Below are positions 1 to 33,109 of a stretch of DNA of 64,000 bases, in pieces. A program made the translations under genes and the position numbers. The notes beneath the pieces are model-generated. The model saw only the letters and a program-made list of their open reading frames with translations, did not search any database and was not told the origin of the DNA. Position 1 is the stretch's first letter; every line of letters begins with the position of its first letter. The DNA is from Nitrosopumilus sp. (GTDB lineage: Archaea; Thermoproteota; Nitrososphaeria; Nitrososphaerales; Nitrosopumilaceae). Location: positions 192,001 through 256,000 of the forward strand of contig OZ244651.1 in assembly GCA_965218695.1 (NCBI GenBank), in the 5' to 3' direction.

Positions 1-142
1 CTACTCTTTGTTCTATCTTTCCTGCCTAGCGTATGGAGGTATCCGGCGCAGAACCGGCCTGAATGTGCCGATTTCGCCAATCTAATCGCGATCTGCGAAA
101 TTAGTTTTTCCGGATCTTTAATCCGATTACTACCCGTACCCC

Positions 143-763
143 ATGGGGGACAAGGCCGGGTACGTCGGGGTGTGCCTGGGAGACGGCGGCACCGTGTCAG
201 TCACGGTGGCCGGAACCCGGGGGGCGGCGGTGCTAGACGAGCACTACCCGCACTGGGACACGCCGCTTACCTGCGACGAGTTCTCCGTCTATAACGGGTT
301 CAAGAAACGCCAACGGTGCTGGGCGCACATGCTGCGGGAATCCGAATACCGCACGCACTCAAATGATCCGCTCATGGTACTGCTGCACCACAGGCTGCAG
401 ACGATATTCCACGACGCAAAATTCATCCCGCCAGACAAGGGCATAGACACAGGCCCCATGGCATTGGAGGTCAAGTCAATCGCGCAGGCGTACCTGCAGC
501 ACGGCCAGCGGGTGTTTGGCACCAAACTCCACAACGCTGCAGACCATCTCTTTACCTTCGTGAATCATCCCGGCATGGATCCCACTAACAACGAGACTGA
601 AAGGATGGTGCGCAGGATAGTGCTGCACAGGAAGATCCGCATGAGGATGGTAAATCCTGGCGGGATGAGGATGTTTGGCATTCTCATGACCTGTTTCCTT
701 ACGTGGAGGAGACGGGGGCTTGACATACACCAGAAAATCCTAGAGGTACTTGCCTGCACCTAA
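143..763 (+). pseudogene. IS66-family transposase, 3' portion (5' part interrupted or outside window); element right end TAAACAATTAC at 761-771
   Basis: Motifs QRCWAH and DPTNNETERMVR..V..RK typical of IS66 TnpC; end reads GTAATTG on the minus strand, like the other IS66 ends here. Confidence 0.8.
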
Positions 764-924
764 ACAATTACCCCGCCCGACTCTGCGAGGTTGGTGAATA
801 CATGATAACCCTACCCACCCACCACATGTGGCGGGCTGACCCCTAATTACGCATGGTCGCAAAGACCTGGTTGTTGAATGGGGCTATCCAAGCTGCTGTG
901 TTACTGGACTCCGAGTCCTGATAG

Positions 925-2040
925 ATGTATGCAGCTACCGGCCTGTCACACAAAAAAAGGGAGGTGAAAGAAATAGAAAAGAGTATTGGAATTGACATAG
1001 GAAAGAGAAAATGTGTAACGTGTATAATGGATCACAAGGGGACAATCCTGGAAAAGTCATCGTACAACAACACGTCCCGGGAGGCATTGGAGTTTGCAGC
1101 ATATCTAAAGGCCACATACGGCCAGTGCAAAGCAGTCTGCGAATCCACCGGAAACCACTGGATTAAGACTGCAGACGCCTTTGAATCCGCCGGAGTCCCG
1201 CTGACGCTTGCCAATCCGTTCAAGGTCAAGGCAATCGCATGGGCCAAAATAAAAAACGACACCATAGACGCAAGAACGCTTGCCAACCTGCTGCGGGCAG
1301 ACCTGGTTCCAGGCTGCCACATAGGTTCGGCCGAATCCAGGGGAATTAAGCAGGTCCTCAGGTACCAGATGACCCTAGTGCAGGACCGGACAAAAGTGAT
1401 CAACTTTGTGCACACGCTGACAGACAAATACGACATAAATCCAAAAAATGCAGGGACCAGCGTCTGGAGACCAAAGGTCCTAAAGTACCTTGAAGGAGCA
1501 GACATGAAGAATTTCAGGGACAGGTTTGTTCTGGACGGCTGCATATCGCAGATACGGTACTACAACGACGAGATAAAAAAGACCGAAGACGAGATCAAGT
1601 GCTACGTCCGAGACGCCCATGCCCCGAAGATACTGCTGAGCATGACGGGAATGAACGTGTTTTCTGCTGCACTGCTGGCAGCAGAGATCGACACCATCGA
1701 AAGGTTTGAGAACCCAAAAAAGCTCGTATCCTGGGCAGGCATGTGCCCGACGCTTCACCAGTCAGGCGACACGCTATACCACGGCAGGATGAAAAAGGAC
1801 TCGAACCGGAAGGTCAACTGGATCATGATCCAGTGTGCGCTTGTGGCAGTGTTCCATGACGCAAGGATGAAGGAACACTACACGCGCCTCCTGAAGAGGC
1901 ACAAGCACCACATCGCCATAACGCACGTCGCAAACAAGATGCTGACGATCATCTGGCACATGCTGACAGAAGGCAACCTGTACGAGGACAGAAACGAGAA
2001 ACTGTACCGCGCCAAGATCAAGGAAGTTATGAAGGCGTAG
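925..2040 (+). CDS. IS110-family DEDD recombinase/transposase (true start possibly GTG at 964)
   Basis: GIDIGK, CESTG and KNDTIDA DEDD motifs; C-terminal SWAGMCPTLHQSG serine motif. Confidence 0.93.
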   Translation: MYAATGLSHKKREVKEIEKSIGIDIGKRKCVTCIMDHKGTILEKSSYNNTSREALEFAAYLKATYGQCKAVCESTGNHWIKTADAFESAGVPLTLANPFKVKAIAWAKIKNDTIDARTLANLLRADLVPGCHIGSAESRGIKQVLRYQMTLVQDRTKVINFVHTLTDKYDINPKNAGTSVWRPKVLKYLEGADMKNFRDRFVLDGCISQIRYYNDEIKKTEDEIKCYVRDAHAPKILLSMTGMNVFSAALLAAEIDTIERFENPKKLVSWAGMCPTLHQSGDTLYHGRMKKDSNRKVNWIMIQCALVAVFHDARMKEHYTRLLKRHKHHIAITHVANKMLTIIWHMLTEGNLYEDRNEKLYRAKIKEVMKA

Positions 2041-2235
2041 ACGCAGAACCGGCAATGTCCGTAGACGATGATGCCTGATCTAGCGGATGCTGTGCACAAA
2101 TTATGGGAACTATGGGATGTTTCTACATGAATGCTGGGGGGCCAGCCCCCCAGACCCCCCGGAAGGGATTATGCGTGTCACACCGCGGGGCAAAAAGCCG
2201 TATTTTCTGCCGGTCGGGCAGGATTCTGCTTGCAG

Positions 2236-3448
2236 GGGTGTGTCCTAGAGGCATATACCCCCGGATGACAAAAGATATGGATCGGCGGATCACGGCATCG
2301 CCTAATGACTACAAAGAAACGCGACCAACGACAGTACGATTTGGTTCAGCAGTACCTGTCGGGCCTCATGCTGAATACCGTGCTGGGAATAATCAAGAAT
2401 CTTGGGGATCCGTACGCCGTCAGGCCCGGCCTGGGCGGCATGACGGCATACCCGCCTGGCGCCATGGCAGCTGTCTGCATCATGCTTGAGGCACAGCGCA
2501 CGACCTACCGTAAGATGGTCGGCATCCTCCGAAACAATAGCGCCATGGCAGCCAAGATGGGCCTAGAGAAAATTCCCTCCAAGAGCACGATAGCACGCGC
2601 CTACGGCCTGATCCCGGAATGGTACCTGGCAGAGGCACACCGGATTGCCATCAGGGAGGTGGAGGCAGGCTCCCTGGCAGCAGACGGTACCGGATACTCG
2701 TACCTGCGGTTTGTCAGGTGGTTTGACGTCAGGACCGACAGTTTTCGTACCAGAAAGGGATGGGTCAAACTGCACGCAATCGTGGATATCCGCACCAGGG
2801 TGATAATCGACTGCATGGTGACTGACAGCGCAGTGGCAGACATAAACGGGCTGTACGCGATGCTCGGCAGGTTAGGCCGGGGCACCGGCGACTTTTGCCT
2901 GGATTCTGCATACCTGGCAAGGCTCATGTGCAACATGATATCTGCGATGGGAATGGTGCCCCGCATCAAGCCAAAATCCAACACCATACGCAACGCCAGG
3001 GGAAGCCAGTCGTGGCGCGAGATGGTAAGCCTGTACATGGATGAACGGGACAGGTTTGACTCGGAATACCACCAGCGCAGCATCATCGAGGCAGTCTTTG
3101 CCGCCCTCAAGAAGATGTACGGGGACAGCACCAGGTGCCGAAAACACGAGAACCGGACAAGGGAGACTGCGATCCGTGTCATGTGCTACAACATCGAGCT
3201 CGTGGCCAGATTGCAGGCAAAAGACGGCAGGCTCACACAGGATCAAATCGCGACACTTGCAGCATAGCTGGCGCGTTTCACCACGCGCTTCCTAGCGGAG
3301 CCTCCGCACCGTGTCTTGGATTTGGGGGATTTTATGGGTTGTGGAGGATCGATGGTGCGGCACTGTTGGCGTCGACGGGTTCTGGCACCAATCATGTCTT
3401 TGGCATTCTGGTACATGAAATGGCATTTTTTATTACTAGGACACACCC
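2236..3448 (+). mobile_element. 1213-bp IS5-like element, copy A
   Basis: TIR GGGTGTGTCCTAG/CTAGGACACACCC; 9-bp TSD TGCTTGCAG/TGCATGCAG (1 mismatch). Confidence 0.92.
2305..3267 (+). CDS. IS5/IS4-type DDE transposase (320 aa)
   Basis: AADGTG, KLH, LDSAY and YHQRSIIEAVF motifs. Confidence 0.92.
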   Translation: MTTKKRDQRQYDLVQQYLSGLMLNTVLGIIKNLGDPYAVRPGLGGMTAYPPGAMAAVCIMLEAQRTTYRKMVGILRNNSAMAAKMGLEKIPSKSTIARAYGLIPEWYLAEAHRIAIREVEAGSLAADGTGYSYLRFVRWFDVRTDSFRTRKGWVKLHAIVDIRTRVIIDCMVTDSAVADINGLYAMLGRLGRGTGDFCLDSAYLARLMCNMISAMGMVPRIKPKSNTIRNARGSQSWREMVSLYMDERDRFDSEYHQRSIIEAVFAALKKMYGDSTRCRKHENRTRETAIRVMCYNIELVARLQAKDGRLTQDQIATLAA

Positions 3449-3612
3449 TGCATGCAGGTAACGCTTAAGAAGTCAAAAAACATACCCAAGGTGACAAGTT
3501 GGACGCAAAACCTGGATAAGTCCGGGGATGGGTTAACATAGATGCGTAATTCTTCTGACCGCCTAGTCTAGTCCGATACGTTCAATGATCCCATGATCGC
3601 CCGCACGCGATA

Positions 3613-4622
3613 ATGATCAAACACAACAGACGGGAAAGATACTGACAGTACTACGAACTTGCAAACGAAGTCGAGGCATCCCACCTGAGGAGGACGCTGA
3701 TTGAAATGATTCTTGAGAACCCCTGCCCGCGCTCCGAAAACGACAACAGGGGCCGTCCTCGGATTCACTCCAAGGACAAGCTGGATTTTGCCTGCCTGCC
3801 TGCCTGCTGATGAGGGCATACAACAACACATTCCGCAGGATCGAGTCAGACCTGCACGACATGCGGACTCCCTGGGACGGCGAACCCGTGCCGGATCACA
3901 CCACGATAGTCAGGCACCTCCAGATCATCCCGCCAGACTGGATGGATTTGGTGCTGGCCGAGACTGCTCGCCGATGCATCGCCGGGGCGTCCGGGGCAAC
4001 CGGACCGCTGGCTGCAGACAGCAGCGGAGTGGAGACTACCCGGTACGAGGACATCGAAAAACCCTGCAAAAGGGAGCGCGATTTCGTCGAGATGCGCCAA
4101 AAGGCCTACTGGAAATACCACGTAACGGCCATCATGGGGCTACAGATCGTGCTGGCCGCGTTTGGCACGCCTGGCAACGTCAACGACGTCACGATGCTGC
4201 CAGTCATGCTGGCAGAGATCAGGCGCCGCGGGTATGACTTTTCGGGGCGCGTCTTTGATGCGGACCGCGGGTATGACGCCGACTACAACTTCAAGGAGCT
4301 GTTCTGGATGGGCATGACGCCCAACATCAAGCAGAGAAAGGACGCCGTCAGCAGGGGCAAGCCAAGCAGGAAGAAGGCAGCCGGGCTGTTTGACTCGCAC
4401 GAGTACAGGACAAGAGCCCTGGTGGAAGGCATATTCGGGGCCGAGGAGAGCCGGCGGCACCAGCTTCACTGCAGGTTCGTGCGCGAAGACAATCGGCGCC
4501 GGTTTGCCAAGGGACGAGCAATCTCATGGAACATCCGGATCCTCAACCGGTTTAAGTGTGCCTGCCGGCTAAATATACCGATACCGTCCTACGGCGGTTC
4601 GGCTCGCACGGAGTGCGCCTGA
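3613..4622 (+). pseudogene. IS5-family transposase with in-frame TGA (3643-3645) and GCCT x4 frameshift (3790-3805)
   Basis: N-terminus aligns by eye with the intact homologue at 44568-45581 (RY*QY vs NYWNS; RGRPRIHS); PVPDHTTI, AADSSG and DADRGYD downstream. Confidence 0.85.
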
Positions 4623-6015
4623 TGATCCAACCCGTCCGTATCTGACCCCGTCCGTGAGAATGCGGCGGGAAATATTCAGATTAGGACATATCGGAATTAT
4701 GCACCAACCTCCGACTGTATGAGTTCACCTGCCCCTTATATCAGTCGACCAACTTCTTCGGCCACGCTCTTGCCATGTGCCCTCCACGTGAGGACGCATG
4801 TAACAAAATCTGCAAGACGCTTCATGGACTTGGGCCCACCCTTGGTCTGCCCGCTTATCTTGCGGAACACCACCAGATAGCGCAGTGCCCTCTCGCCGGC
4901 GTTGTTTGTAGGGTCGACACCTGGATGCTCCAGGAACGCAAACATGCGGTGCAGGTGCCTCTCAAGCTTGTCCAGCACCTTTTGCATGTCGTCATCGTTA
5001 CCACCACCTGCATCGCGATACCGGTCAAGCATGTCCTGCATGGTGCGGTTCATCGCATGCCGCAGATGTGGCGAGTGCGCCTCCTGCGCGGCCAGCAGTT
5101 TTGCCCTCTCAAACACCCACTTGTGGTCCTCGTGGAGCTGCCGCCGCCGCCGGACGCGTTTGGTCTTGGGAGGCACGGCACAGTATTTTTCTGCCAGGTG
5201 TCTTGTCTGCCGGAGGTCGTGCGCCCAGCACGACTGGTGCATGCCGCCCTTGTCAAACCTGTCATACCCGTTGTACCCGTCAGTTATCGCCACCCCGTCA
5301 AATTTGTCCATGGCATCGAGCATGAGCGTGGCCCTGCTCTGGCTGATGTTTATTGCGATATTTTTGCCCGACTGTGCCACGTTTGCGTGCACCCTCTGGC
5401 CGTCGTTTCGCCAGCTGGTCTCGTCAAACCCGGCACAGTCAGAAGCCTCCACTTCCCCGAGGATCCTGCCTGCCTCGTGGCCCGAGGCGTCCCCGACGCG
5501 CGCCATGATGTTGTTGACAGTGGATCCTGCAAGCTCAATGTCCGTTATGGAGCGCACCGCGACCGAGATTCCCTTGAGCGGCACCCGTGCCGCGCGCAGT
5601 TCTGAGACGAGCCCGACCAGTCCCTTGCCGAAGTTGCCCCGCCGCGGCAGGTCGTTTGGGGCATCTTCCCTGCGGCCGCATGAGCCGCATATTGCAGTCT
5701 CCACGCGGTGCCGCGTCTCGCACGCAGTCACCATGATGTCCGTGATGTCCCGCACGCGCGGACTGCCAATCGCCATCCGGCCGCCGCCGCACCCGCATTC
5801 CGGGAGTACCGGCACCTGTCTCCTGCCCGACTTCCTGCGCCCGAACCTGTGGGATACGGTCCTTTCCGGGTCGTGGGAGCGCGACGCCCCCACGTGTCCA
5901 TCTCTTCCCCCGCGCTTGGCTTTGTCTCCCTTTTCCTGTTTTTTTGCCCGCTCCCTCTTCTGGGCCTTCCATTCCAGGGATTCAGATGAGGGCGGCGTGT
6001 TGGGGTTTGTATAGT

Positions 6016-7486
6016 AGATTCTATGCGTAATCGCACTTAATTTTTAATTTTAGACAGCACGCATGAATTATTGTTGGATTTGCGGATTAATTCTGCATCA
6101 AGGCATGCGGTGCCGGAGACATTTTACAAGCATTTGCAGCAATACGTGCGCACCATCCCCGCACCGCGATGTGCACCGGTTCTGTTATCAGAACGGGGCG
6201 CTGCCTGCAGGCGGGACGGCCCCGTTCCAGTCAATGACTGTCTCCCACCTGCCAGGCGGCGGCGGGCCCTTGTCTATCTTGTCCCATAGCAGGTGCAGGT
6301 TTACCAGTCCGGTGGCCACGTTGAATTCGTAGTTGAACCTGCCTATGGTCCCGTCGTACGGGTCTGTCAGGCGCGCGTATCTCTTGAGCCTTCCGATGGA
6401 GTGCTCCACGCGCACCCGGACAGAGTTGACCAGGTGGTTGTGTTCTTTTTGCTTGGCAGTCAGGATCCGGCGGTTTTTTGATCTCTTGTGGGGGATCATG
6501 AGCGTTGAGCCCGGCAGATCCTTGCCGGTTCCCTGGTAGCCCCTGTCTGCCCAGACGCGGATCCTGTCTTTTTCCGGCGTGGAGGCCTCGCGCATGGAAT
6601 CGGCCCACCTGCCAAACGGCATAGGATCCTCCCTGAGCAGCGTAATGTCGCCGGTGGAGCCGACGGAGCTTTTCGAGATCCCGATTATCACCCCGTCGGC
6701 GTTGGTGTAGACTGTGGTGTTGTAGGTAAAGCGCTTCTTCTTGCCCGAGTACATCATGCGCCTGAGGGTCTTTTCTGACGGGCGCCGCACCGGACAGTGC
6801 GTGCCGTCTGCGATGATGTTGCCCCCGTCGGATCCGGGCACGATTTTTTTGAATTCCTCCTTGGTCTTGCACGAGGCCACCTCTTTTGAGACGTTTTTGG
6901 CAGTGGGAAGCACCCCGGCCAGCATCTTGTCCATCACCTTGAGGTACCTGCACACGCTGGTCTGGTCGATTCCGAATATTGCCTGCAGCGTGCCCTGCGT
7001 GGGGTTGTCTTTTTTGTGCATGAGCGACATGAGCAGGGCGTGCCGGAGGCGCAGCCTGCACCTGTTTCCCGGATCAGAGGCCCGGGATTCGTCGTCGCGA
7101 AACAGCGGCATGTCGCCGGATGCGGTGGCGTACGCCAACACCCGCTCCAGAACGTGCCGGAACTCCTCCCTGCTGCACAGGGTCGCAGAGCGCAGGCTGG
7201 ACTCGTCTGATATGACGCCGTCAAAGACCTCGATCCTGTGCAGGTCCGTGCTGTTCCCCGGGTCCCAGCCCTCCTCCCTGTTCTTCCACAGGCGGCGCTC
7301 GATGTCCAGCTCCTTGTCCTTTTGGTCTAATTCCTTGTCTTTCTGTGCCAGAGTCTCGTTTAGTTTTTTAATTTCCTGTTGCATCTTGCGTATGGCTTGA
7401 TCAGACGAATCCTGCATTTGGAATGTAGCGAGATTATGTCTGATCTAAACTTATTGGATTGATGGGTGGGATTACGCATAAAATCT
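6016..7486 (-). mobile_element. IS5/ISL2-like (Harbinger-related) element
   Basis: TIR AGATTCTATGCGTAATC/GATTACGCATAAAATCT; TSD AGT or TAGTA (boundary ambiguous by 1-2 bp). Confidence 0.85.
6188..7417 (-). CDS. DDE_Tnp_4-like transposase with N-terminal coiled coil and HTH
   Basis: IADGTH, YSGKKK, WADRGYQG and RVRVEHSIGRLK motifs. Confidence 0.9.
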   Translation of the reverse strand: MQDSSDQAIRKMQQEIKKLNETLAQKDKELDQKDKELDIERRLWKNREEGWDPGNSTDLHRIEVFDGVISDESSLRSATLCSREEFRHVLERVLAYATASGDMPLFRDDESRASDPGNRCRLRLRHALLMSLMHKKDNPTQGTLQAIFGIDQTSVCRYLKVMDKMLAGVLPTAKNVSKEVASCKTKEEFKKIVPGSDGGNIIADGTHCPVRRPSEKTLRRMMYSGKKKRFTYNTTVYTNADGVIIGISKSSVGSTGDITLLREDPMPFGRWADSMREASTPEKDRIRVWADRGYQGTGKDLPGSTLMIPHKRSKNRRILTAKQKEHNHLVNSVRVRVEHSIGRLKRYARLTDPYDGTIGRFNYEFNVATGLVNLHLLWDKIDKGPPPPGRWETVIDWNGAVPPAGSAPF

Positions 7487-7735
7487 AGTATGTCATGATG
7501 CGCTCGCTGTACCCCAAGGCCCTTTCAAGACGTTCGATCTTGGCAAGCACCTCTTCAATCTTGGACTCGAGCATGGCATTTTTCTTCCTTTCCTCAGCCA
7601 GTTCCCTCTCCAGCTGTTCCCTGTTCATGTGCCGTGGGTTCCCCATGGACAGGGATGTGTATTACCAGCATATGGATCAGTATGATCATTTTTTTGTGAC
7701 AGGAAGGACAGGTGAATTCATACCTCCGACTCTGC

Positions 7736-8948
7736 GGGTGTGTCCTAGAGAGATATACTCTAGGATGACAAAAGATATGGATCGGCAGATCACGGCATCG
7801 CCTAATGACTACAAAGAAACGCGACCAACGACAGTACGATCTGGTTCAGCAGTACATGCCGGGCCTCATGCTGAATACCGTGCTGGGGATAATCAAAGAG
7901 CTTGGGGATCCGTACGCCGTCTGGCCCGGCTTGGGCGGCATGACGGCATACCCGCCTGGCGCCATGGCAGCTGTCTGCATCATGCTTGAGGCACAGCGCA
8001 CGACCTACCGCAAGATGGTCGGCATTCTCCGAAGTAACGGCGTCATGGCAGCCAGGATGGGCCTGGACAGAATTCCCTCCAAGAGCACGATAGCACGCGC
8101 CTACGGCCTGATCCCGGAATGGTATCTGGCAGAGACACACCGGATTGCCATCAGGGAGGTGGGGACAGGCTCCCTGGCAGCAGACAGTACCGGGTACTCG
8201 TACCTGCGGTTTGTCAGGTGGTTTAACGTCCGGACCGACAGTTTTCGTACCAGAAAGGGATGGGTCAAGCTGCACGCAATCGTGGACATACGCACCAGGG
8301 TGATAATCGACTGCATGGCAACTGACAGCGCGGTGGCAGACATAAACGGGCTGTACGCGATGCTCGGCAGGCTCGGCCTAGGCACCGGTGACTTTTGCCT
8401 GGATTCTGCATACCTGGCAAGGCTAATGTGCAACATGATATCTGCGATGGGAATGGTGCCCCGCATCAAGCCAAAATCCAACACCATACGCAACGCCAGG
8501 GGAAGCCAGTCGTGGCGCGAAATGGTAAGCCTGTACATGGATGACAAGGACAGGTTTGACTCGGAATACCACCAGCGCAGCATCATCGAGGCAGTCTTTG
8601 CAGCCCTCAAGAAGATGTACGGGGACAGCACCAGGTGCCGAAAACACGAGAACCGGACAAGGGAGACTGCGATCCGTGTCATGTGCTACAACGTCGAGCT
8701 CGTGGCCAGATTGCAGGCAAAAGACGGCAGGCTCACACAGGATCAAATCGCGACACTTGCAGCGTAACCGGTGCGTCTTGACACGCGCCTCCTAGCGGAG
8801 CCTCCGCACAGTGTCTTGGATTTGGGGGATTTTATGGGTTGTGAAAGATTGACGGTGCGGCACTGTTGGCGTCGACGGGTTCTGGCACCAATCGTGTCTT
8901 TGGCATCTTGGCACATGAAATGGCATTTTTTATTACTAGGACACACCC
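7736..8948 (+). mobile_element. 1213-bp IS5-like element, copy B
   Basis: Same TIRs as copy A; TSD CGACTCTGC (7727-7735; right copy split by IS66). Confidence 0.92.
7805..8767 (+). CDS. IS5/IS4-type DDE transposase (320 aa)
   Basis: Close paralogue of 2305-3267. Confidence 0.92.
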   Translation: MTTKKRDQRQYDLVQQYMPGLMLNTVLGIIKELGDPYAVWPGLGGMTAYPPGAMAAVCIMLEAQRTTYRKMVGILRSNGVMAARMGLDRIPSKSTIARAYGLIPEWYLAETHRIAIREVGTGSLAADSTGYSYLRFVRWFNVRTDSFRTRKGWVKLHAIVDIRTRVIIDCMATDSAVADINGLYAMLGRLGLGTGDFCLDSAYLARLMCNMISAMGMVPRIKPKSNTIRNARGSQSWREMVSLYMDDKDRFDSEYHQRSIIEAVFAALKKMYGDSTRCRKHENRTRETAIRVMCYNVELVARLQAKDGRLTQDQIATLAA

Positions 8949-8953
8949 CGACT

Positions 8954-10492
8954 GTATGAATTCACCTGTCCTTCCTGTCACAAAAAAATGATCATACTGA
9001 TCCATATGCTGGCAATACACATCACTTTACATGGTAAATTCACGGCACATGAGCAGGGACCAGCTAAAAGAGGAACTCCTAGCACGGAACCGGGAGATTG
9101 CCACCCTCAAATCCGATCTTGAGAAGGCACTTGGCAGGATAGAACGTCTTGAAAGGGCCTTGGGGTACAGCGAACGCCTCATGACATACTATACAAACCC
9201 CAACACGCCGCCCTCATCTGAATCCCTGGAATGGAAGGCCCAGAAGAGGGAGCGGGCAAAAAAACAGGAAAAGGAGGGCAAATCCAAGCGCGGGGGAAGA
9301 AAGGGACACGCGGGGGCGTCGCGCCCCCACGACCCGGAAAGGACCGTATCCCACAGGTTCGGGCGCAGGAAGTCGGGCAGGAGGCGGGTGCCGGTGCTCC
9401 CGGAATGCGGGTGCGGCGGCGGCCGGATGGCGATTGGCAGTCCGCGCGTGCGGGACATCACGGACATCAGGGTGACTGCGTGCGAGACGCGGCACCGCGT
9501 GGAGACTGCAGTATGCGGCTCATGCGGCCGCAGGGAAGATGCTCCAAACGACCTGCCGCGGCGGGGCAACTTCGGCAAGGGCATGGTCGGACTCGTCTCA
9601 GAACTGCGCGCGGCACGGGTGCCGCTCAAGGGAATCTCGGTCGCGGTGCGCTCCATAACGGGCATTATGCTTGCAGGATCCACCGTCAACAACATCATGG
9701 CACGCGTCGGGGACGCCTCGGGCCACGAGGCAGGCAGGATCCTCGGGGAAGTGGAGGCTTCTGACTGTGCCGGGTTTGACGAAACCAGCTGGCGAAACGA
9801 CGGCCAGAAGGTACACGCAAACGTGGCACAGTCGGGCAAAAATATCGCAATAAACATCAGCCAGAGCAGGGCCACGCTCATGCTCGATGCCATGGACAAA
9901 TTTGACGGGGTGGCGATAACTGACGGGTACAACGGATATGACAGGTTTGACAAGGGCGGCATGCACCAGTCGTGCTGGGCGCACGACCTCCGGCAGACAA
10001 GGCACCTGGCAGAAAAATACTGCGCCGTGCCTCCCGAGACCAAACGTGTCCGGCGGCGGCAGCAGCAGCTCCACGAGGACCACAAGTGGGTGTTTGAGAG
10101 GGCAAAACTGCTGGCCGCGCAGGAGGCGCGCTCGCCACAGCTGCGGCATACGATGAACCGCACCATGCAGGACGTGCTTGACCGGTACCGCGATGCCGGT
10201 GGTGGTGGTAACGATGACGACATGCAAAAGGTGCTGGACAAGCTCGAGAGGCACCTGCACCGCATGTTTGCGTTCCTGGAGCATCCCGGCGTCGAGCCTA
10301 CAAACAACGCCAGCGAGAGGGCGCTGCGCTACCTGGTGGTGTTCCGCAAGATAAGCGGGCAGACCAAGGGCGGCTCCAAGGCCATGAAGCGCCTTGCAGA
10401 TTTTGTCACGTGCGTCCTCACGTGGAGGGCACATGGCAAGAGCGTGGCCGAAGAAGTTGGTCGACTGATATAAGGGGCAGGTGAATTCATAC
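8954..10492 (+). mobile_element. Single-ORF IS66-like element (intact)
   Basis: TIR GTATGAATTCACCTG; 8-bp TSD CCCCGACT (8946-8953, 10493-10500). Confidence 0.92.
9031..10473 (+). CDS. IS66-family transposase (480 aa)
   Basis: Coiled coil, NPNTPPSS, Zn finger, FDETSW, TDGY, QSCWAH and PTNNASERALR. Confidence 0.93.
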   Translation: MVNSRHMSRDQLKEELLARNREIATLKSDLEKALGRIERLERALGYSERLMTYYTNPNTPPSSESLEWKAQKRERAKKQEKEGKSKRGGRKGHAGASRPHDPERTVSHRFGRRKSGRRRVPVLPECGCGGGRMAIGSPRVRDITDIRVTACETRHRVETAVCGSCGRREDAPNDLPRRGNFGKGMVGLVSELRAARVPLKGISVAVRSITGIMLAGSTVNNIMARVGDASGHEAGRILGEVEASDCAGFDETSWRNDGQKVHANVAQSGKNIAINISQSRATLMLDAMDKFDGVAITDGYNGYDRFDKGGMHQSCWAHDLRQTRHLAEKYCAVPPETKRVRRRQQQLHEDHKWVFERAKLLAAQEARSPQLRHTMNRTMQDVLDRYRDAGGGGNDDDMQKVLDKLERHLHRMFAFLEHPGVEPTNNASERALRYLVVFRKISGQTKGGSKAMKRLADFVTCVLTWRAHGKSVAEEVGRLI

Positions 10493-10504
10493 CCCCGACT
10501 CTGC

Positions 10505-11717
10505 GGGTGTGTCCTAGTAATAAAAAATGCCATTTCATGTACCAGAATGCCAAAGACATGATTGGTGCCAGAACCCGTCGACGCCAACAGTGCCGCACCG
10601 TCAATCTTTCACAACCCATAAAATCCCCCAAATCCAAGACACTGTGCGGAGGCTCCGCTAGGAGGCGCGTGGTGAAACGCGCCAGCTATGCTGCAAGTGT
10701 CGCGATTTGATCCTGTGTGAGCCTGCCGTCTTTTGCCTGCAATCTGGCCACGAGCTCGACGTTGTAGCACATGACACGGATCGCAGTCTCCCTTGTCCGG
10801 TTCTCGTGTTTTCGGCACCTGGTGCTGTCCCCGTACATCTTCTTGAGGGCTGCAAAGACTGCCTCGATGATGCTGCGCTGGTGGTATTCCGAGTCAAACC
10901 TGTCCTTGTCATCCATGTACAGGCTTACCATCTCGCGCCACGACTGACTTCCCCTGGCGTTGCGTATGGTGTTGGATTTTGGCTTGATGCGGGGTACCAT
11001 TCCCATCGCAGATATCATGTTGCACATTAGCCTTGCCAGGTATGCAGAATCCAGGCAAAAGTCGCCGGTGCCCCGGCCTAACCTGCCGAGCATCGCGTAC
11101 AGCCCGTTTATGTCTGCCACTGCGCTGTCAGTCACCATGCAGTCGATTATCACCCTGGTGCGTATGTCCACGATTGCGTGCAGTTTGACCCATCCCTTTC
11201 TGGTACGAAAACTGTCGGTCCTGACGTCAAACCACCTGACAAACCGCAGGTACGAGTATCCGGTACCGTCTGCTGCCAGGGAGCCTGCCTCCACCTCCCT
11301 GATGGCAATCCGGTGTGCCTCTGCCAGGTACCATTCCGGGATCAGGCCGTAGGCGCGTGCTATCGTGCTCTTGGAGGGAATTTTCTCTAGGCCCATCTTG
11401 GCTGCCATGGCGCTATTGTTTCGGAGGATGCCGACCATCTTACGGTAGGTCGTGCGCTGTGCCTCAAGCATGATGCAGACAGCTGCCATGGCGCCAGGCG
11501 GGTATGCCGTCATGCCGCCCAGGCCGGGCCTGACGGCGTACGGATCCCCAAGATTCTTGATTATTCCCAGCACGGTATTCAGCATGAGGCCCGACAGGTA
11601 CTGCTGAACCAAATCGTACTGTCGTTGGTCGCGTTTCTTTGTAGTCATTAGGCGATGCCGTGATCCGCCGATCCATATCTTTTGTCATCCGGGGGTATAT
11701 GCCTCTAGGACACACCC
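10505..11717 (-). mobile_element. 1213-bp IS5-like element, copy C
   Basis: Same TIRs; perfect TSD CGACTCTGC at 10496-10504 and 11718-11726. Confidence 0.93.
10686..11648 (-). CDS. IS5/IS4-type DDE transposase (320 aa)
   Basis: Paralogue of 2305-3267. Confidence 0.92.
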   Translation of the reverse strand: MTTKKRDQRQYDLVQQYLSGLMLNTVLGIIKNLGDPYAVRPGLGGMTAYPPGAMAAVCIMLEAQRTTYRKMVGILRNNSAMAAKMGLEKIPSKSTIARAYGLIPEWYLAEAHRIAIREVEAGSLAADGTGYSYLRFVRWFDVRTDSFRTRKGWVKLHAIVDIRTRVIIDCMVTDSAVADINGLYAMLGRLGRGTGDFCLDSAYLARLMCNMISAMGMVPRIKPKSNTIRNARGSQSWREMVSLYMDDKDRFDSEYHQRSIIEAVFAALKKMYGDSTRCRKHENRTRETAIRVMCYNVELVARLQAKDGRLTQDQIATLAA

Positions 11718-11732
11718 CGACTCTGCTAAATA

Positions 11733-11740
11733 GATATAAG
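11733..11740 (+). promoter_or_regulatory. Putative TATA box GATATAAG
   Basis: AT-rich box ~24 bp upstream of the ATG at 11764, spacing typical of a leaderless archaeal gene. Confidence 0.5.
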
Positions 11741-11763
11741 GGAATTGGAGATCCTAAAACAAA

Positions 11764-12207
11764 ATGGCAACAAAGACAGTTCTTATATTTATACTGCCTG
11801 TATTGTTCTCGATAGTGTTTGGATCCGCAGTCATGGCCGATATTCTTCAAAAGCCTGATCGTACCCTGAATATGTGGCCTGTGTCATCTGAAACCACATC
11901 TCATTACACCCTTGAGATCATCGGACTATCCGAGCAATACTCTGTATCCGAGTCAATAACAGCACAATTCGTAGTATCTGATATCTCTTATGACTGCGCC
12001 GATCTGTATGTTACAATTTATTCAGAAAACGTGCCTGTCAGCCAAAACGGATTCTTTAAACAATGTTTTGGAAATGAAGGTATCATTCCGGTAGACGATA
12101 CGTTCTCTGAGACTATTGACACACCGGGATCCTATGAATTGGTGGCACAGCTTGGCTCAGAAAACTTGGGATTCATTCTGACTAGCGCAATATTTACTGT
12201 TAAATAG
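11764..12207 (+). CDS. Hypothetical secreted or membrane-anchored protein
   Basis: N-terminal hydrophobic segment, beta-rich body, host-like composition. Confidence 0.75.
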   Translation: MATKTVLIFILPVLFSIVFGSAVMADILQKPDRTLNMWPVSSETTSHYTLEIIGLSEQYSVSESITAQFVVSDISYDCADLYVTIYSENVPVSQNGFFKQCFGNEGIIPVDDTFSETIDTPGSYELVAQLGSENLGFILTSAIFTVK

Positions 12208-12252: not shown

Positions 12253-13170
12253 ATGGAAGTAACAGGTGATTCTCAAACCATAGAAGAGATCCGGGCAGAG
12301 ATTGATGAACTAAAAAGGAAGGCGATGATTCTGGATTCGTCGTCCACAAGCACTGTTAAGGAATCCTATTCAAAGAAATCCGTACCAAGGCCCACAGCCA
12401 AGAAACCTGCCGCAAAGCCTGCAGCCAAGAAACCTGCCGCAAAGCCTGCAGCCAAGAAACCTGCCGCAAAGCCTGCAGCCAAGAAACCTGCCGCAAAGCC
12501 TGCAGCCAAGAAACCTGCCGCAAAGCCTGCAGCCAAGAAACCTGCCGCAAAGCCTGCAGCCAAGAAACCTGCCGCAAAGCCTGCAGCCAAGAAACCTGCC
12601 GCAAAGCCTGCAGCCAAGAAACCTGCCGCAAAGCCTGCAGCCAAGAAACCTGCCGCAAAGCCTGCAGCCAAGAAGCCTGCAGCCAAGTCCAAACCAAAAA
12701 AATCCACAGCCAAGAAACCCGAGCCCAAAGAATCTGAAAAAACACCAGAGGAGGAGATGGAGGCAAACCTCTCTGATGAGGAGATTGAAAATTTTCGGAT
12801 TGAAAAGGTCGACATGGATAAACTCACAAACAAGGTATGCGTCATTCTGGCAGAACACGAATCAAACGGAATGCTTCAAAACGAACTGTGGAAGAAGCTC
12901 AAACTCTCAAATCGTGATGGTTCGCGTCTGTCATTGAAGCTTGAGAGAATGGGAACCATTACCCGAGAGAAGCTTCTTCAGAAGAACCGCTGGACTTACA
13001 AACTAATCCTAAAAAAGACCCCAGTCAGTACCAAATCGATCGAGAATGCCCCCTGTCTAGTGTGTCCTGTTGAACAAAGATGTACCATAGACGGTGAAAT
13101 CAGCCCTAAAAATTGTCAGCTTATTGAGGACTGGGTAATCAATTCGATGAAGAAGCCGAAGTCCCGATGA
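12253..13170 (+). CDS. RPC34-like / TFE-beta transcription factor (wHTH + FeS-cluster Cys motif) with Lys/Ala/Pro repeat N-terminus
   Basis: C-terminal [23 protein letters not shown] matches the archaeal RPC34/TFE-beta Cys motif; winged-helix-like segment upstream. Confidence 0.78.
12395..12687 (+). repeat. 27-bp coding tandem repeat, 10 perfect units plus a partial unit (AKKPAAKPA)
   Basis: CAGCCAAGAAACCTGCCGCAAAGCCTG repeated at 12395-12664. Confidence 0.95.
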
Positions 13171-21417: not shown

Positions 21418-22364
21418 CTTGTTCAATTGGCTTGGCTTTGAATATAACAGTTGTTTGCGCGTTATGTCAAAGGCAGTGGTCAAGTCCAAACCCATGGAGT
21501 TGTGGGCATGGCTGTGGAGATGTTTATGGATGGAATGGTGCCAGATCATATCATTCTCTTGCCCCCGAACATCCAGAAGATGGTCTGGGATACCGATCTC
21601 TAAGATACCGCCTACCTCATGCTGATAGACATGGGAACAGGAAGGTGCAGATCTGATTGGATGAATACTGCACAGGTCCCAATGGGCTGTGGCGACTTGC
21701 TGTTTTTTACGAGGTTGGTGAATACATGATAACCCTACCCACCCACCACATGTGGCGGGCTGACCCCTAATTACGCATGGTCGCAAAGACCTGGTTGTTG
21801 AATGGGGCTATCCAAGCTGCTGTGTTACTGGACTCCGAGTCATGATAGATGTATGCAGCTACCGGCCTGTCACACAAAAAAAGGGAGGTGAAAGAAATAG
21901 AAAAGAGTATTGGAATTGACATAGGAAAGAGAAAATGTGTAACGTGTATAATGGATCACAAGGGGACAATCCTGGAAAAGTCATCGTACAACAACACGTC
22001 CCGGGAGGCATTGGAGTTTGCAGCATATCTAAAGGCCACATACGGCCAGTGCAAAGCAGTCTGCGAATCCACCGGAAACCACTGGATTAAGACTGCAGAC
22101 GCCTTTGAATCCGCCGGAGTCCCGCTGACGCTTGCCAATCCGTTCAAGGTCAAGGCAATCGCATGGGCCAAAATAAAAAACGACACCATAGACGCAAGAA
22201 CGCTTGCCAACCTGCTGCGGGCAGACCTGGTTCCAGGCTGCCACATAGGTTCGGCCGAATCCAGGGGAATTAAGCAGGTCCTCAGGTACCAGATGACCCT
22301 AGTGCAGGACCGGACAAAAGTGATCAACTTTGTGCACACGCTGACAGACAAATACGACATAAAT

Positions 22365-24015
22365 GTAACTGCATAGTTTTTTGATCAAATGTTGAACTCC
22401 ATGCCTACGCGCGTCTATGCAGTTTTTTGACGTGGAGCCAGGCCCTCGCGCAGGATCGTGCCAAGATCATCTCCCCTTGCCTTGCATGTCTGCTTGATGC
22501 TCATCAGCGTGGCAATGGCATCTGCGCCATCCTTGGATCTGCTCCCGTTGCTGTTCTTGCGCAGGATGACGCACGGCCTGATGGCCCGCTCTGCCCGGTT
22601 GTTGTGGTATTCGACGCCGTCTGTCTCCAGAAACGCAAACAGGTGATCCCTTTCCCGCACCAGCCTCTTGCGCATCCTGTTGCAGTGCTTGCAGTCGCGG
22701 TCCTTTTCGAGCCTGCCGATAAGTGACGCGATACGACGATCCAGCCTCTTCTTTGCGGCAAGCGCGTCTGCCCCTCCCGGAACGGCGCCGTCGATGTGCG
22801 AGTCCCACAGTATCGCGCGCAGCGTCCTTGCGTGACGCTTGTAGTCGTAGCCGGGATTCTTGTATTTCAGGGTGTCCTTGATGTCCCGGGCGTAATGAAG
22901 GTGGCACTTTTGGTGTTCGGATCCGATGACGTTCCACGCGGCCCACGAGTCAGACGTGACGCATCCCGGGTAGTCCTTGCCGAGCATCTTTTTTGGAACC
23001 TTCGAGTTCCTGTGGCGGTGCACCTCGTAGATTACGGCGTACCTGGCTACAGCCACCCACAGCCAGTAGTTCGTGCCGTCGACGCGCCAGATTGTCTCGT
23101 CCCCGTTTATCGCACGCGAGTTTCTTACCTCCTCCTTGATCTTCTCGTACAGCGGCCCGAGCTCCCGGGCCATCCTGCACACCATGCGGTTTATCGCAGA
23201 TTCCGTGATTCTTGCCGAGTACATCATCATGACAATATTGCATATTCTGAGGTCTGACATGCCGTGCAGCCGGAGGATGACCATCATTATCATAAAGTTG
23301 ATCCCGTACCTGGAGTTTGGCAGTGCCAGCGGAGTCCTGCCGGACACGGTCCTCTTGCAGTTCCTGCAACGCCTTCTCTTTAGTCACCTTGATGTGCTTT
23401 AGTTCCGTCTTGGCAGCCTCCCTTACCACCTTTGTGTACGTGGACACGCATTCTGAGAGGTCGGAGCTGCCGCAGTTGTCGCACGTGTGGGGATCTGCCG
23501 TCTCCTCTGCGTCTATTCTTTCAGGACGCGCAAGGCCCGTGCGTTTGTGGTCACTTGGCTTGCCCTTGCCCTTGCCCTTGCCCTTGCCCTTGCCCTTTGC
23601 GCGGCGCCGGGTACTGCCGGTCTTTTTGTCCGGTTTTGCGCCGATGCTCCTTGCAACGGCAGCCGATATGATGCCCTTTGCCTCCTGCAACTCTGCCGTG
23701 AGATCCTGGATCTGTTTGAGGGCGGCAGCGTAAAGATCAGCGAGTTTGGCCATCTGCCGGTCTTTTTCGGCCATCTGCCGGTCTTTTTCGGCCATCTGCT
23801 CTGCCATCACACCCACTTTTTCCTCCAGTTCTGCAATCCTTGACTCGGAATTATCATCAGACATATGCAAACCGTGGGCAACAATGATCTAAAAATTAGG
23901 ACGGAGAGAAAAACTCGATCAAGTGATCAAAAATAGTTTTAAAAAATTAGACAGACGCGGATTTTCTGATTGTAGATATGGAGTTCAACATTTGATCAAA
24001 AAACTACACAGATAC
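22365..24015 (-). mobile_element. Single-ORF IS66-like element with ~38-bp TIRs
   Basis: GTAACTGCATAGTTTTTTGATCAAATGTTGAACTCCAT and its inverse; 8-bp TSD ACATAAAT (22357-22364, 24016-24023). Confidence 0.92.
22415..23870 (-). pseudogene. IS66-family transposase, frameshifted near 23375
   Basis: Coiled coil and first CxxC in one frame; CRNC, GDETIW, QKCHLH and NNRAERAIR in another. Confidence 0.82.
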
Positions 24016-24623
24016 ACATAAATCCAAAAAATGCAGGGACCAGCGTCTGGAGACCAAAGGTCCTAAAGTACCTTGAAGGAGCAGACATGAAGAATTTCAG
24101 GGACAGGTTTGTTCTGGACGGCTGCATATCGCAGATACGGTACTACAACGACGAGATAAAAAAGACCGAAGACGAGATCAAGTGCTACGTCCGAGACGCC
24201 CATGCCCCGAAGATACTGCTGAGCATGACGGGAATGAACGTGTTTTCTGCTGCACTGCTGGCAGCAGAGATCGACACCATCGAAAGGTTTGAGAACCCAA
24301 AAAAGCTCGTATCCTGGGCAGGCATGTGCCCGACGCTTCACCAGTCAGGCGACACGCTATACCACGGCAGGATGAAAAAGGACTCGAACCGGAAGGTCAA
24401 CTGGATCATGATCCAGTGTGCGCTTGTGGCAGTGTTCCATGACGCAAGGATGAAGGAACACTACACGCGCCTCCTGAAGAGGCACAAGCACCACATCGCC
24501 ATAACGCACGTCGCAAACAAGATGCTGACGATCATCTGGCACATGCTGACAGAAGGCAACCTGTACGAGGACAGAAACGAGAAACTGTACCGCGCCAAGA
24601 TCAAGGAAGTTATGAAGGCGTAG

Positions 24624-24903
24624 ACGCAGAACCGGCAATGTCCGTAGACGATGATGCCTGATCTAGCGGATGCTGTGCACAAATTATGGGAATGGCGGGT
24701 GTTTTTACATGAATGCTGGGGGGCCAGCCCCCCAGACCCCCCGAAGGAGGATTATGCATGTCACGCCGCGGGACAAAAGCCGCATTTTTGCGGATCTGGT
24801 AGGATCCTGCATGCAGGTAACGCTTAAGAAGTCAAAAAACATACCCAAGGTGACAAGTTGGACGCAAAACCTGGATAAGTCCGGGGATGGGTTAACATAG
24901 ATG
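24624..24903 (+). ncRNA. Candidate IS110/IS1111 bridge (seek) RNA region, 3' non-coding end
   Basis: ~280-bp non-coding end with blocks conserved in 4 copies, GC hairpins and segments complementary to the insertion target; transcription not shown. Confidence 0.55.
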
Positions 24904-24971
24904 CGTAATTCTTCTGACCGCCTAGTCTAGTCCGATACGTTCAATGATCCCATGATCGCCCGCACGCGATA

Positions 24972-25981
24972 ATGATCAAACACAACAGACGGGAAAGATA
25001 CTGACAGTACTACGAACTTGCAAACGAAGTCGAGGCATCCCACCTGAGGAGGACGCTGATTGAAATGATTCTTGAGAACCCCTGCCCGCGCTCCGAAAAC
25101 GACAACAGGGGCCGTCCTCGGATTCACTCCAAGGACAAGCTGGATTTTGCCTGCCTGCCTGCCTGCTGATGAGGGCATACAACAACACATTCCGCAGGAT
25201 CGAGTCAGACCTGCACGACATGCGGACTCCCTGGGACGGCGAACCCGTGCCGGATCACACCACGATAGTCAGGCACCTCCAGATCATCCCGCCAGACTGG
25301 ATGGATTTGGTGCTGGCCGAGACTGCTCGCCGATGCATCGCCGGGGCGTCCGGGGCAACCGGACCGCTGGCTGCAGACAGCAGCGGAGTGGAGACTACCC
25401 GGTACGAGGACATCGAAAAACCCTGCAAAAGGGAGCGCGATTTCGTCGAGATGCGCCAAAAGGCCTACTGGAAATACCACGTAACGGCCATCATGGGGCT
25501 ACAGATCGTGCTGGCCGCGTTTGGCACGCCTGGCAACGTCAACGACGTCACGATGCTGCCAGTCATGCTGGCAGAGATCAGGCGCCGCGGGTATGACTTT
25601 TCGGGGCGCGTCTTTGATGCGGACCGCGGGTATGACGCCGACTACAACTTCAAGGAGCTGTTCTGGATGGGCATGACGCCCAACATCAAGCAGAGAAAGG
25701 ACGCCGTCAGCAGGGGCAAGCCAAGCAGGAAGAAGGCAGCCGGGCTGTTTGACTCGCACGAGTACAGGACAAGAGCCCTGGTGGAAGGCATATTCGGGGC
25801 CGAGGAGAGCCGGCGGCACCAGCTTCACTGCAGGTTCGTGCGCGAAGACAATCGGCGCCGGTTTGCCAAGGGACGAGCAATCTCATGGAACATCCGGATC
25901 CTCAACCGGTTTAAGTGTGCCTGCCGGCTAAATATACCGATACCGTCCTACGGCGGTTCGGCTCGCACGGAGTGCGCCTGA
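24972..25981 (+). pseudogene. IS5-family transposase with the same TGA and GCCT frameshift as 3613-4622
   Basis: Appears identical to copy 1 by eye, including both lesions. Confidence 0.85.
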
Positions 25982-26200
25982 TGATCCAACCCGTCCGTAT
26001 CTGACCCCGTCCGTGAGAATGCGGCGGGAAATATTCAGATTAGGACATATCGGAATTATGCACCAACCTCGTTTTTCAGTAGATGGAAATGTGTTTTTTC
26101 AGGACAACCTGATCTTGCCGCGTTCCTTATGATCACTAGGCGTTCGCCATTATTAGACTCTGGGTGTTAAAAATGGAGCGCGCGAGTCTTACACGTTCAA

Positions 26201-30914: not shown

Positions 30915-31197
30915 ACCACCCTCTTTTTATTTTATAATCAATTAGACCGGTCCCGCATGGCAGATTTCTTCCGGAATTGTTGAGGCCCGCATGGGGCAGA
31001 GTCATGATCCGGGACTTTTATCAAAGGATGCATTCTGGAATTCGGTCCTTTCGGTCATGCAATCCCTGCAGCAGCAGCATCCCGGTATATCCTATACACG
31101 GTATGGTGGCCGGTTCCTGCACGCCATTCCGATGTGCCATTACCTGGATGCCATCCAGAGGAAAAATATCTGCCATGTCTGTCCTCGGCTGTGAACC

Positions 31198-31689
31198 GGG
31201 GTTGTCGCATAAATCATGTTGAGCGTATGATCGTACGTCATTGACTCATACCGGCTAAGGATCACAAAGTGTGTCCCCTTTAATGAATCACAAGAGAAAG
31301 GCTAACTACTGGAATAGTTATCACAGGGCACACACTACTGAGCGCAACTTTCGGATAAAAATTATCGTGTCTTTGGTCGGGAGGAACCCGCCGCCGGCAA
31401 AACAGGGCAGTGGTAAACGCGGGAGACCCAGAATACACTCTGCAGAGAAGATGGCCTGCGTATGTGCCATCATGATCTTCGAGGGCCTCACGTTCAGGAA
31501 CGCGCAAAACTGCGTACCGGATGGTACCTTCCGTGGCACAAGCCGGTTCCGGACCATTCAACGATAGCGTGATTCCTTGAGACGATTCCAATCTGGTGAC
31601 TGGAACGAATCCTGAGGGAAGCTGCGCGTCAATGCATGGAGGCGGCAGGTACGACAGATTATGACTTGACGGATTTACGCGACCACCCC
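31198..31689 (+). mobile_element. Internally deleted, degenerate IS5-family element (492 bp) related to 44476-45624
   Basis: TIR GGGGTTGTCGCATAAAT / ATTTACGCGACCACCCC; 9-bp TSD CTGTGAACC; only a 5' transposase remnant remains. Confidence 0.85.
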
Positions 31690-31698
31690 CTGTGAACC

Positions 31699-33061: not shown

Positions 33062-33109
33062 TGTGAACCAGCATGGTTTTAAATAGGGCTTTGGAAGGTT
33101 TTACACTAC

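Follow-up and report, generated by a model that had tools for sequence, protein, structure and literature searches.

The insertion sequence (IS) IS231A inserts into the ends of Tn4430, a preference ascribed to DNA bending; IS4321 and IS5075, the 'inverted-repeat hunters' of the IS110 family, occupy the ends of Tn21-family transposons, and Tn7 inserts site-specifically at its attachment site, attTn7. According to the accessible parts of two reports, elements of the IS110 family are guided by a bridge or seek RNA (PMC11208160, PMC11187229). In the inverted repeat (IR)-targeting of IS30 and the targeted insertion of IS911, the incoming element integrates beside a resident terminal repeat and leaves abutted ends, as the available portion of PMC9333248 describes. 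Similarly, the accessible text of PMC4196232 describes for IS26 a targeted conservative insertion next to another IS26, and the part of PMC6563490 at hand describes casposons in ef-2 and arrays of integrase elements that grow by tandem accretion at an attachment site, with the same duplicated target between the members. Here we describe a stack of ISs at the beginning of a 64,000-nucleotide stretch of DNA from Nitrosopumilus sp. (GenBank assembly GCA_965218695.1, contig OZ244651.1, positions 192,001 to 256,000 of the forward strand), in which the 9-bp word CGACTCTGC recurs at the borders of several elements. This whole stretch is called the window below; positions refer to it unless prefixed by C1, which denotes the contig that carries it.

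The stack is, on balance, probably a real pile-up produced by ordinary DDE transposition, in which what is re-used is the border of a resident IS with its flank rather than the word CGACTCTGC. Observed directly are the anatomy of the stack, a partial order of its insertions, the lack of sequence specificity and a genome-wide excess of insertions adjacent to IS termini, together with ordinary staggered-cut insertion that restores the target on either side of the newcomer. The genome is exceptionally rich in ISs, with about 340 copies; it comprises 2.63 Mb in 9 contigs, the largest of which (2.46 Mb) carries hundreds of ISs with intact duplications.

Anatomy and partial order of the stack

The layout was obtained by direct reading of the sequence together with a repeat map, and comprises the following features.

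143..771, + strand: E, relic IS66-like element; C-terminal part of the transposase, open reading frame (ORF) 143-763; right end at about 771
772-777: CCCGCC, between the end of E and T1
778..786: T1, first CGACTCTGC copy; left duplication of D
787..4711, + strand: D, composite of the IS5-like element F and an IS110-like element
787-796 and 3543-4711: left stub and body of F within D; ORF 3810-4622, Pfam DDE_Tnp_1
797-3542: IS110-like element in D; ORF 925-2040, DEDD_Tnp_IS110 and Transposase_20
2236..3448, + strand: A1, copy of the IS5-like element A lying within the IS110-like part of D; ORF 2305-3267, DDE_Tnp_1 and DUF772
2227-2235 and 3449-3457: A1's own 9-bp duplication, TGCTTGCAG and TGCATGCAG (TGCtTGCAG/TGCaTGCAG)
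4709-4716 and 7724-7731: CTCCGACT, 8-bp duplication of B2
4712-4716 and 8949-8953: CGACT half-sites
4717..7723, - strand: B2, IS66-like element split by C; truncated ORF 4736-5893, DDE_Tnp_IS66
about 6017..7485, - strand: C, IS5-like element nested in B2; ORF 6188-7417, DDE_Tnp_4; inverted repeat 6011-6036 / 7466-7491
7727..7735: T2, second CGACTCTGC copy; CGACT from the duplication of B2, CTGC from the right duplication of D; also the left duplication of A2
7736..8948, + strand: A2, intact copy of the IS5-like element A; ORF 7805-8767
8946-8953 and 10493-10500: CCCCGACT, 8-bp duplication of B1
8954..10492, + strand: B1, intact IS66-like element; ORF 9031-10473, 480 aa
10496..10504: T3, third CGACTCTGC copy; CTGC after CCCCGACT
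10505..11717, - strand: A3, intact copy of the IS5-like element A, in the opposite orientation to A1 and A2; ORF 10686-11648
11718..11726: T4, fourth CGACTCTGC copy
11727..12207, + strand: unique right flank; TATA-like box TAAATAGATATAAGGG at 11727-11742; ORF 11764-12207

The word CGACTCTGC occurs exactly four times in the window, at 778, 7727, 10496 and 11718, where 0.54 occurrences would be expected and none of 100 shuffles reaches four; counting and shuffling thus confirm what a preliminary description of this locus had reported, and each of the four copies abuts an IS terminus. Once both insertions of element B are subtracted, D, A2 and A3 are each bordered by CGACTCTGC; our reading agrees with the earlier one in that these three 9-bp-duplication elements share one target, and in the CGACT half-sites at 4712 and 8949. 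The first three bases of CTCCGACT are the last three of D (CTC), and those of CCCCGACT are the last three of A2 (CCC). Because the two 8-bp duplications hold the end of the left neighbour, B2 entered after D and B1 after A2; by the same logic, the earlier statement that two IS66-like copies inserted at the same offset after CGACT, and later than the elements to their left, holds. The duplications also show directly that C came after B2 and A1 after the IS110-like element, and they leave the order of D, A2 and A3 unfixed. The trinucleotide TAG on either side of C resembles a 3-bp duplication.

Nested insertions are confined to D and B2, the two leftmost members, in keeping with the earlier remark that the promoter-distal members are nested. 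Where three transposase types had been counted, Pfam and NCBIfam profiles distinguish five in the interval. Serial insertion itself stands, and the previous minimum of five events rises to at least seven.

Element B was assigned by a score of 102 bits with Pfam DDE_Tnp_IS66 (cut-off 23.1) and 171.6 bits with NCBIfam transpos_IS66, just below the cut-off of 180. Its ends are GTATGAATTCAC...GTGAATTCATAC, and a perfect 8-bp duplication flanks 23 of 24 copies. Members of the IS66 family make 8-bp target duplications and have terminal inverted repeats beginning GTA, and B has both traits. Canonical IS66 also carries the accessory genes tnpA/tnpB, in place of which B has a single ORF of 480 aa in 1539 bp; it presumably resembles the single-ORF subgroup (ISBst12-like). 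The relic E matches only the last part of the Pfam DDE_Tnp_IS66 profile (2.6e-14) and reaches 86.8 bits with NCBIfam IS66, below the cut-off; it is single-copy in the genome, and its upstream part is disrupted by other insertions. The relic gene E is interrupted by an element of about 175 bp that resembles a miniature inverted-repeat transposable element, has perfect long terminal inverted repeats (GTAGTAATCGGATTAAAGATCCGGAAAAAC...) and straddles the window start (L031 7960-8135, equal to C1:191960-192135; window 1-135).

The transposase of A (320 aa) matches DDE_Tnp_1 and DUF772 in Pfam. With the NCBIfam IS5 models A, F and C score 111, 49 and 77, respectively, all below the cut-off of 140. 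A2 belongs to a minor subfamily and is 95% identical to A3, and C is single-copy at the DNA level, its nearest other copy being 72% identical. An intact F with the 9-bp duplication GTATTTCTG lies at C1:879138-880314, whereas in D it is split 10 bp inside its left end by the IS110-like element, which scores 219.7 bits with NCBIfam transpos_IS110 (above the cut-off of 140). A second composite of F and the IS110-like element is found at 21711-26070, its F part being identical to that of D over 1169 bp. This second composite is without A1 and is broken by a 1.6-kb IS66-like element with ends GTAACTGCATAG; the 9-mers that border it agree at only six of nine positions. The conserved flanks of the IS110-like copies (797-3542 and 13 others in the genome) are the terminal repeats of IS5-like elements, and 14 left and 10 right flanks have in common ..GTTG/GGTG and then TGCRTAATT-like sequence. 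Judged from these flanks, the pattern is one of sequence-specific end hunting, as would be expected of an RNA-guided IS110-family transposase.

IS termini as probable targets across the genome

The preliminary description had taken the sequence of the site to be what is reused. In the whole genome CGACTCTGC is present 55 times, and none of the 51 copies outside the stack (48 in unique DNA, 3 within low-copy repeats) abuts an IS terminus; many of them may be inside genes, in which an insertion would not persist. Element A has 22 full-length copies, and the 17 outside the stack with 8/9 or 9/9 duplications have all different target sequences. The target logo of A, drawn from symmetrised frequencies, holds no information within the 9 bp, with a weak T at -3, a weak A at +3 and AT-rich flanks around them. 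CGACTCTGC is not a hot spot, and A is not sequence-specific. Sequence-directed reuse is contradicted by the 51 unoccupied copies and by the lack of a consensus among the other duplications of A, and also by B, which takes its position of 3 bases inside and 5 outside where the outer five are GCACC or ACAAC; what survives of the earlier interpretation is a shared, re-used duplication and the later entry of the IS66-like elements. As a separate observation, A sits at an identical 9-bp site, CTGCAAGCA, in each of two IS110-like copies with only 88% identity to one another, at C1:194236 (A1) and C1:2048094; the two A copies differ by 0.25%, so that either a hot spot was struck twice independently or gene conversion took place.

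The 23 perfect duplications among the 24 copies of B in the genome have no common sequence. What 10 or 11 of these copies share is a position within 15 bp of another IS terminus, the neighbours representing at least seven families (A, F, X, H, I, J, M and perhaps L). From our genome-wide catalogue of 675 IS termini, the chance that a random point falls within 15 bp of a catalogued terminus is 0.008, and that of finding at least 10 of 24 there about 2e-15. Repeats (at least 200 bp long and at least 85% identical) make up 26.5% of the bases of the genome, yet not one of the 24 copies is found deep within an IS (P = 6e-4). In six copies the duplication straddles the junction between IS and flank, with a fixed geometry of 3+5 or 4+4 bases; in the lines below the slash marks the IS end.

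B1 beside A2, 3 inside + 5 outside: CCC/CGACT
B2 beside D, 3 inside + 5 outside: CTC/CGACT
C1:114455 beside a copy of A, 3+5: GGTGC/GGG
C1:473314 beside X, 3+5: GCC/ACAAC
C1:683687 beside H, 4+4
C1:1402511 beside I, 4+4

In all six straddling cases B demonstrably arrived second. 'After CGACT' in the stack therefore means five bases beyond an IS end, and an IS terminus appears to drive the placement of B independently of sequence.

Sharing of duplications between neighbours extends beyond the stack. The genome was scanned for short words bordering at least three repeat boundaries, and the hits were then read and extended. Exact sharing was found at other loci (three or more): TGTGAACC-O-TGTGAACC-N-TGTGAACC at window 31190-33070 (C1:223190-225070; O measures 493 bp, with ends GGGGTTGTCGCATAAATC..., and N 1.36 kb, with ends AACTTTGTTTCC...), GAATTTC-P-GAATTTC-P'-GAATTTC, and CTAAG-I-CTAAG-I-CTAAG. 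Near-exact cases are an A copy followed by a unit starting with G, where the 8-bp duplication of the unit starts exactly at the end of A; N and F, whose 7-bp and 9-bp duplications have a common start; and H and A, with an offset of one base. By chance, about 0.09 exact reuses of a duplication would be expected in the whole genome. Over the whole catalogue, 32 of the 675 termini face another terminus no more than 17 bp away, the corresponding value for random points being 0.31%, and the density of facing termini is 0.8 per bp at 0-17 bp, 0.23 per bp at 31-100 bp and 0.03 per bp at 1-3 kb.

Two further arrangements were noted. A copy of A at C1:1281403-1282628 lies between facing Q termini (CAGTAGTCGG...) and seems to have entered a short Q-Q spacer, the bordering 9-mers agreeing at seven of nine positions. 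Element J (ends TGTATAGTCCCG...), at C1:686942-688372 and C1:2103101-2104535, apparently has unusually long flanking direct repeats of 15-16 bp.

Explanations of the stack

If the junction of a resident IS with its flank is what is reused, the stack would most likely have arisen as follows. Every insertion with a 9-bp duplication (F/D, A2 and A3) would recreate the same nine bases on either side, and in a genome saturated with ISs newcomers would strongly favour the few bases at or beside a resident IS terminus; given such a preference, a regenerated duplication would be hit again. B would centre its 8-bp staggered cut on the IS/flank junction, as 3+5 or 4+4, whatever the resident family, and in elements that share a duplication one of the cuts would fall on the bond joining the resident IS to its flank. 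The attractor would probably be a deformable or nicked junction, the nick possibly lying at the bond cut by the resident's own transposase, or else a terminus bent by bound transposase. In known DDE complexes the distortion of the target DNA peaks in the middle of the target, which is where the junction lies in the 8-bp target of B.

A wider form of this proposal, which we put forward only tentatively, is that any resident IS/flank junction might be a hot target independently of family, through a physical mark, such as a lasting nick, a gap or a bend caused by transposase, that heterologous transposases read, so that elements making duplications of 9, 8, 7 and 5 bp cut again precisely at the former border. 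This would be a general and previously undescribed form of target choice. In a bolder sub-case the promoter-proximal copy may be favoured, and the members of the stack would then stand in the order of their arrival.

Several points weigh against junction reuse. The attractor, whether nick, bend or gap, is purely our inference, and all the evidence comes from one genome, from whose assembly the insertions are deduced. The terminus catalogue is home-made, and families H, F and N are among those that it missed. The density of facing termini is raised at 31-100 bp too, so part of the excess is not mechanistic, and selection for harmless sites probably inflates the coarser clustering. Many families have no terminus-adjacent copies (for example 0/22, 0/22 and 0/20), so the effect depends on the family and is strongest for B, A and I. 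The presence of A at CTGCAAGCA in both IS110-like copies hints at hot spots that are not termini.

The preliminary description had proposed growth as at the leader of an array, each newcomer entering the copy beside the promoter, so that the members D, B2, A2, B1 and A3 would form a record of insertion in that order. We regard such polar growth as unlikely. Five successive insertions into the rightmost copy are compatible with the arrangement seen, as are many other orders; since the duplications leave D, A2 and A3 unordered, any final arrangement would be 'compatible' with polar growth. A conceivable cause would be promoter DNA that is bent by TBP/TFB and attracts transposases, older elements being pushed away. 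T4 does abut a TATA-like box, which is conserved in two related species; the genome has four TBP genes, its encoding of TBP identifying the organism as an archaeon; and several other stacks are also near AT-rich, TATA-like sequence. However, B takes the same 3+5 position elsewhere at varying distances from a TATA-like motif, and its placement is thus explained by the IS terminus and not by the promoter. Polar growth would account for the restriction of nested insertions to the leftmost members. It would likewise account for the private substitutions, which number three in B2, two in A2 and none in B1 or A3, B2 and A2 being parts of small subfamilies and B1 and A3 of large recent ones. These counts agree with greater age on the left, but they are too small to date the copies or to serve as evidence, and they depend on subfamily size (the remaining two members of A2's subfamily have two and one private changes); moreover, the F part of D, at the left of the stack, is identical to that of the second composite over its 1169 bp.

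No shorter allele, and no empty one, was found in the 41 relatives searched with the right flank, and exact scans of metagenome contigs for T4 with the right flank, and for the end of E with T1, gave 0 hits each. In the closest relatives (G002, 90%, and G018, 79%) homology starts exactly at 11727 and runs rightwards, with unrelated DNA to the left. The IS66-like element B was found in none of the other complete genomes searched from the genus and occurs there as fragments only, in 2 of 60 other genomes; its expansion is therefore specific to this lineage and offers no cross-genome comparison. On the unique side of the stack, relative G002 has an insert of about 78 bp (L033 1423-1500) that separates the TATA-like box from the start codon of its homologue of ORF 11764, and immediately upstream of that box is the end of a TnpB-like gene; this promoter edge is thus a rearrangement boundary there too. 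Downstream of the stack in our window, about 12-17 tandem 27-bp units lie at 12319-12777, in ORF 12253-13170 (305 aa, no clear family).

It is quite improbable, in our estimation, that CGACTCTGC in its context is a sequence or structural hot spot preferred by IS5-like transposases, its copies staying hot and termini being irrelevant. Tn10 and IS903 do have insertion hot spots, three IS5-like insertions share the one site here, and the targets of A show a weak symmetric preference in the flanks; the two CTGCAAGCA insertions in IS110-like copies, moreover, would mean that hot spots can be hit repeatedly. Against this, the 51 other 9-mers are unoccupied, though most may lie in genes, and there is no information inside the 9 bp of A; each insertion also replaces one flank of every copy with IS DNA, so that the context is lost. 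A hot spot would leave unexplained both the geometry of the IS66-like element at unrelated sequences and the duplications shared by unrelated families at other loci.

It is highly improbable that the stack stems from a misassembly of multi-copy ISs, or that IS copies gave rise to it through homologous recombination or unequal exchange. In favour of such an origin are the repeat content of the genome (26.5%) and the same-family direct tandems (I-I, P-P'), which could come from unequal exchange at flanking duplications, but all elements of the locus have matching duplications, including the 3-base orphans, which misassembly or recombination would break, and the 2.46-Mb contig carries its hundreds of ISs with duplications intact. 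With A2 and A3 in opposite orientations and 5% apart, and D from a different family, the copying of a single unit cannot have built the stack. Tandem duplication by unequal exchange was ruled out on the orientation and divergence of A2 and A3, movement of a composite on the mismatch that would be expected between inner and outer duplications, and recombination between dispersed copies on the intactness of all duplications. Parts of the stretch are present in seven public runs from 3 studies, all of them as short-read contigs, and the best-matching runs may be the source sample. Short-read contigs of four of the public runs were placed on the locus, and among the pieces listed none bridges an internal IS junction. 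Two short-read records (16/X2 and 24/X5) run from 11690 through T4 into the flank, with only 28 letters on the IS side, too few to count as a bridge. The lack of bridging short-read pieces says nothing for or against the assembly.

Relation to known systems and meaning

The likeness to IS30 and IS911 lies in insertion adjoining the end of a resident element, but in the available portion of PMC9333248 the target is the element's own inverted repeat, acted upon by its own transposase, and the product is an unstable joint of left and right inverted repeats (IRL-IRR) with a tiny spacer. Here, in contrast, the partners are heterologous families, the spacer may be a full duplication, orientation is free and the duplications are normal; the neighbours at the loci described belong to other families, their spacers measure 5-12 bp or amount to a whole duplication, and either orientation is seen. 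IS26, as far as the accessible text goes, resembles the present case in its strong preference for landing beside a resident IS and in building arrays. It differs in needing an identical IS26, in making no new duplication and in leaving direct repeats that share one IS copy. The arrays of casposons and integrase elements, in the part of their description at hand, do regenerate the site as the preliminary description imagined; those elements are site-specific everywhere, whereas A, F and B are not. Site-specific tandem accretion would use the same target everywhere; here the 17 duplications of A and the 24 of B are unrelated, and the 51 other 9-mers stand empty.

The IS110 hunters resemble the D composite in living in the termini of other transposons, the IS110-like element of D being 10 bp inside the end of F. 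They are sequence-specific, unlike the IS66-like and IS5-like insertions of this genome, which have no common target. In the case of IS231A and Tn4430, similarly, an IS4/IS5-type element favours the terminal repeats of another transposon, but there one defined target sequence is used, and here many resident families serve; a 1987 paper on the association of IS231 with Tn4430 is among the references of the review PMC6199540. What differs from these systems is the heterologous partners, the absence of a target sequence and the fixed geometry of the IS66-like element. Our literature search, outside which most subscription journals lay, found no account of IS66-family insertion at the ends of other ISs, nor one of target duplications shared by heterologous elements, and it found almost no mechanistic literature on the IS66 family.

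The stack itself is a striking but explicable by-product. If IS termini do attract unrelated transposases, this would explain how tight nests of ISs form in heavily colonised genomes without destruction of host genes, and ISs would have a way to expand that costs the host little and limits itself. A class of target choice set by structure and not by sequence would then join consensus sites, own repeats and RNA guides. For annotation, shared duplications give a partial order of insertion from sequence alone. The '3 inside, 5 outside' geometry of B, finally, is a testable handle on target choice in the IS66 family.

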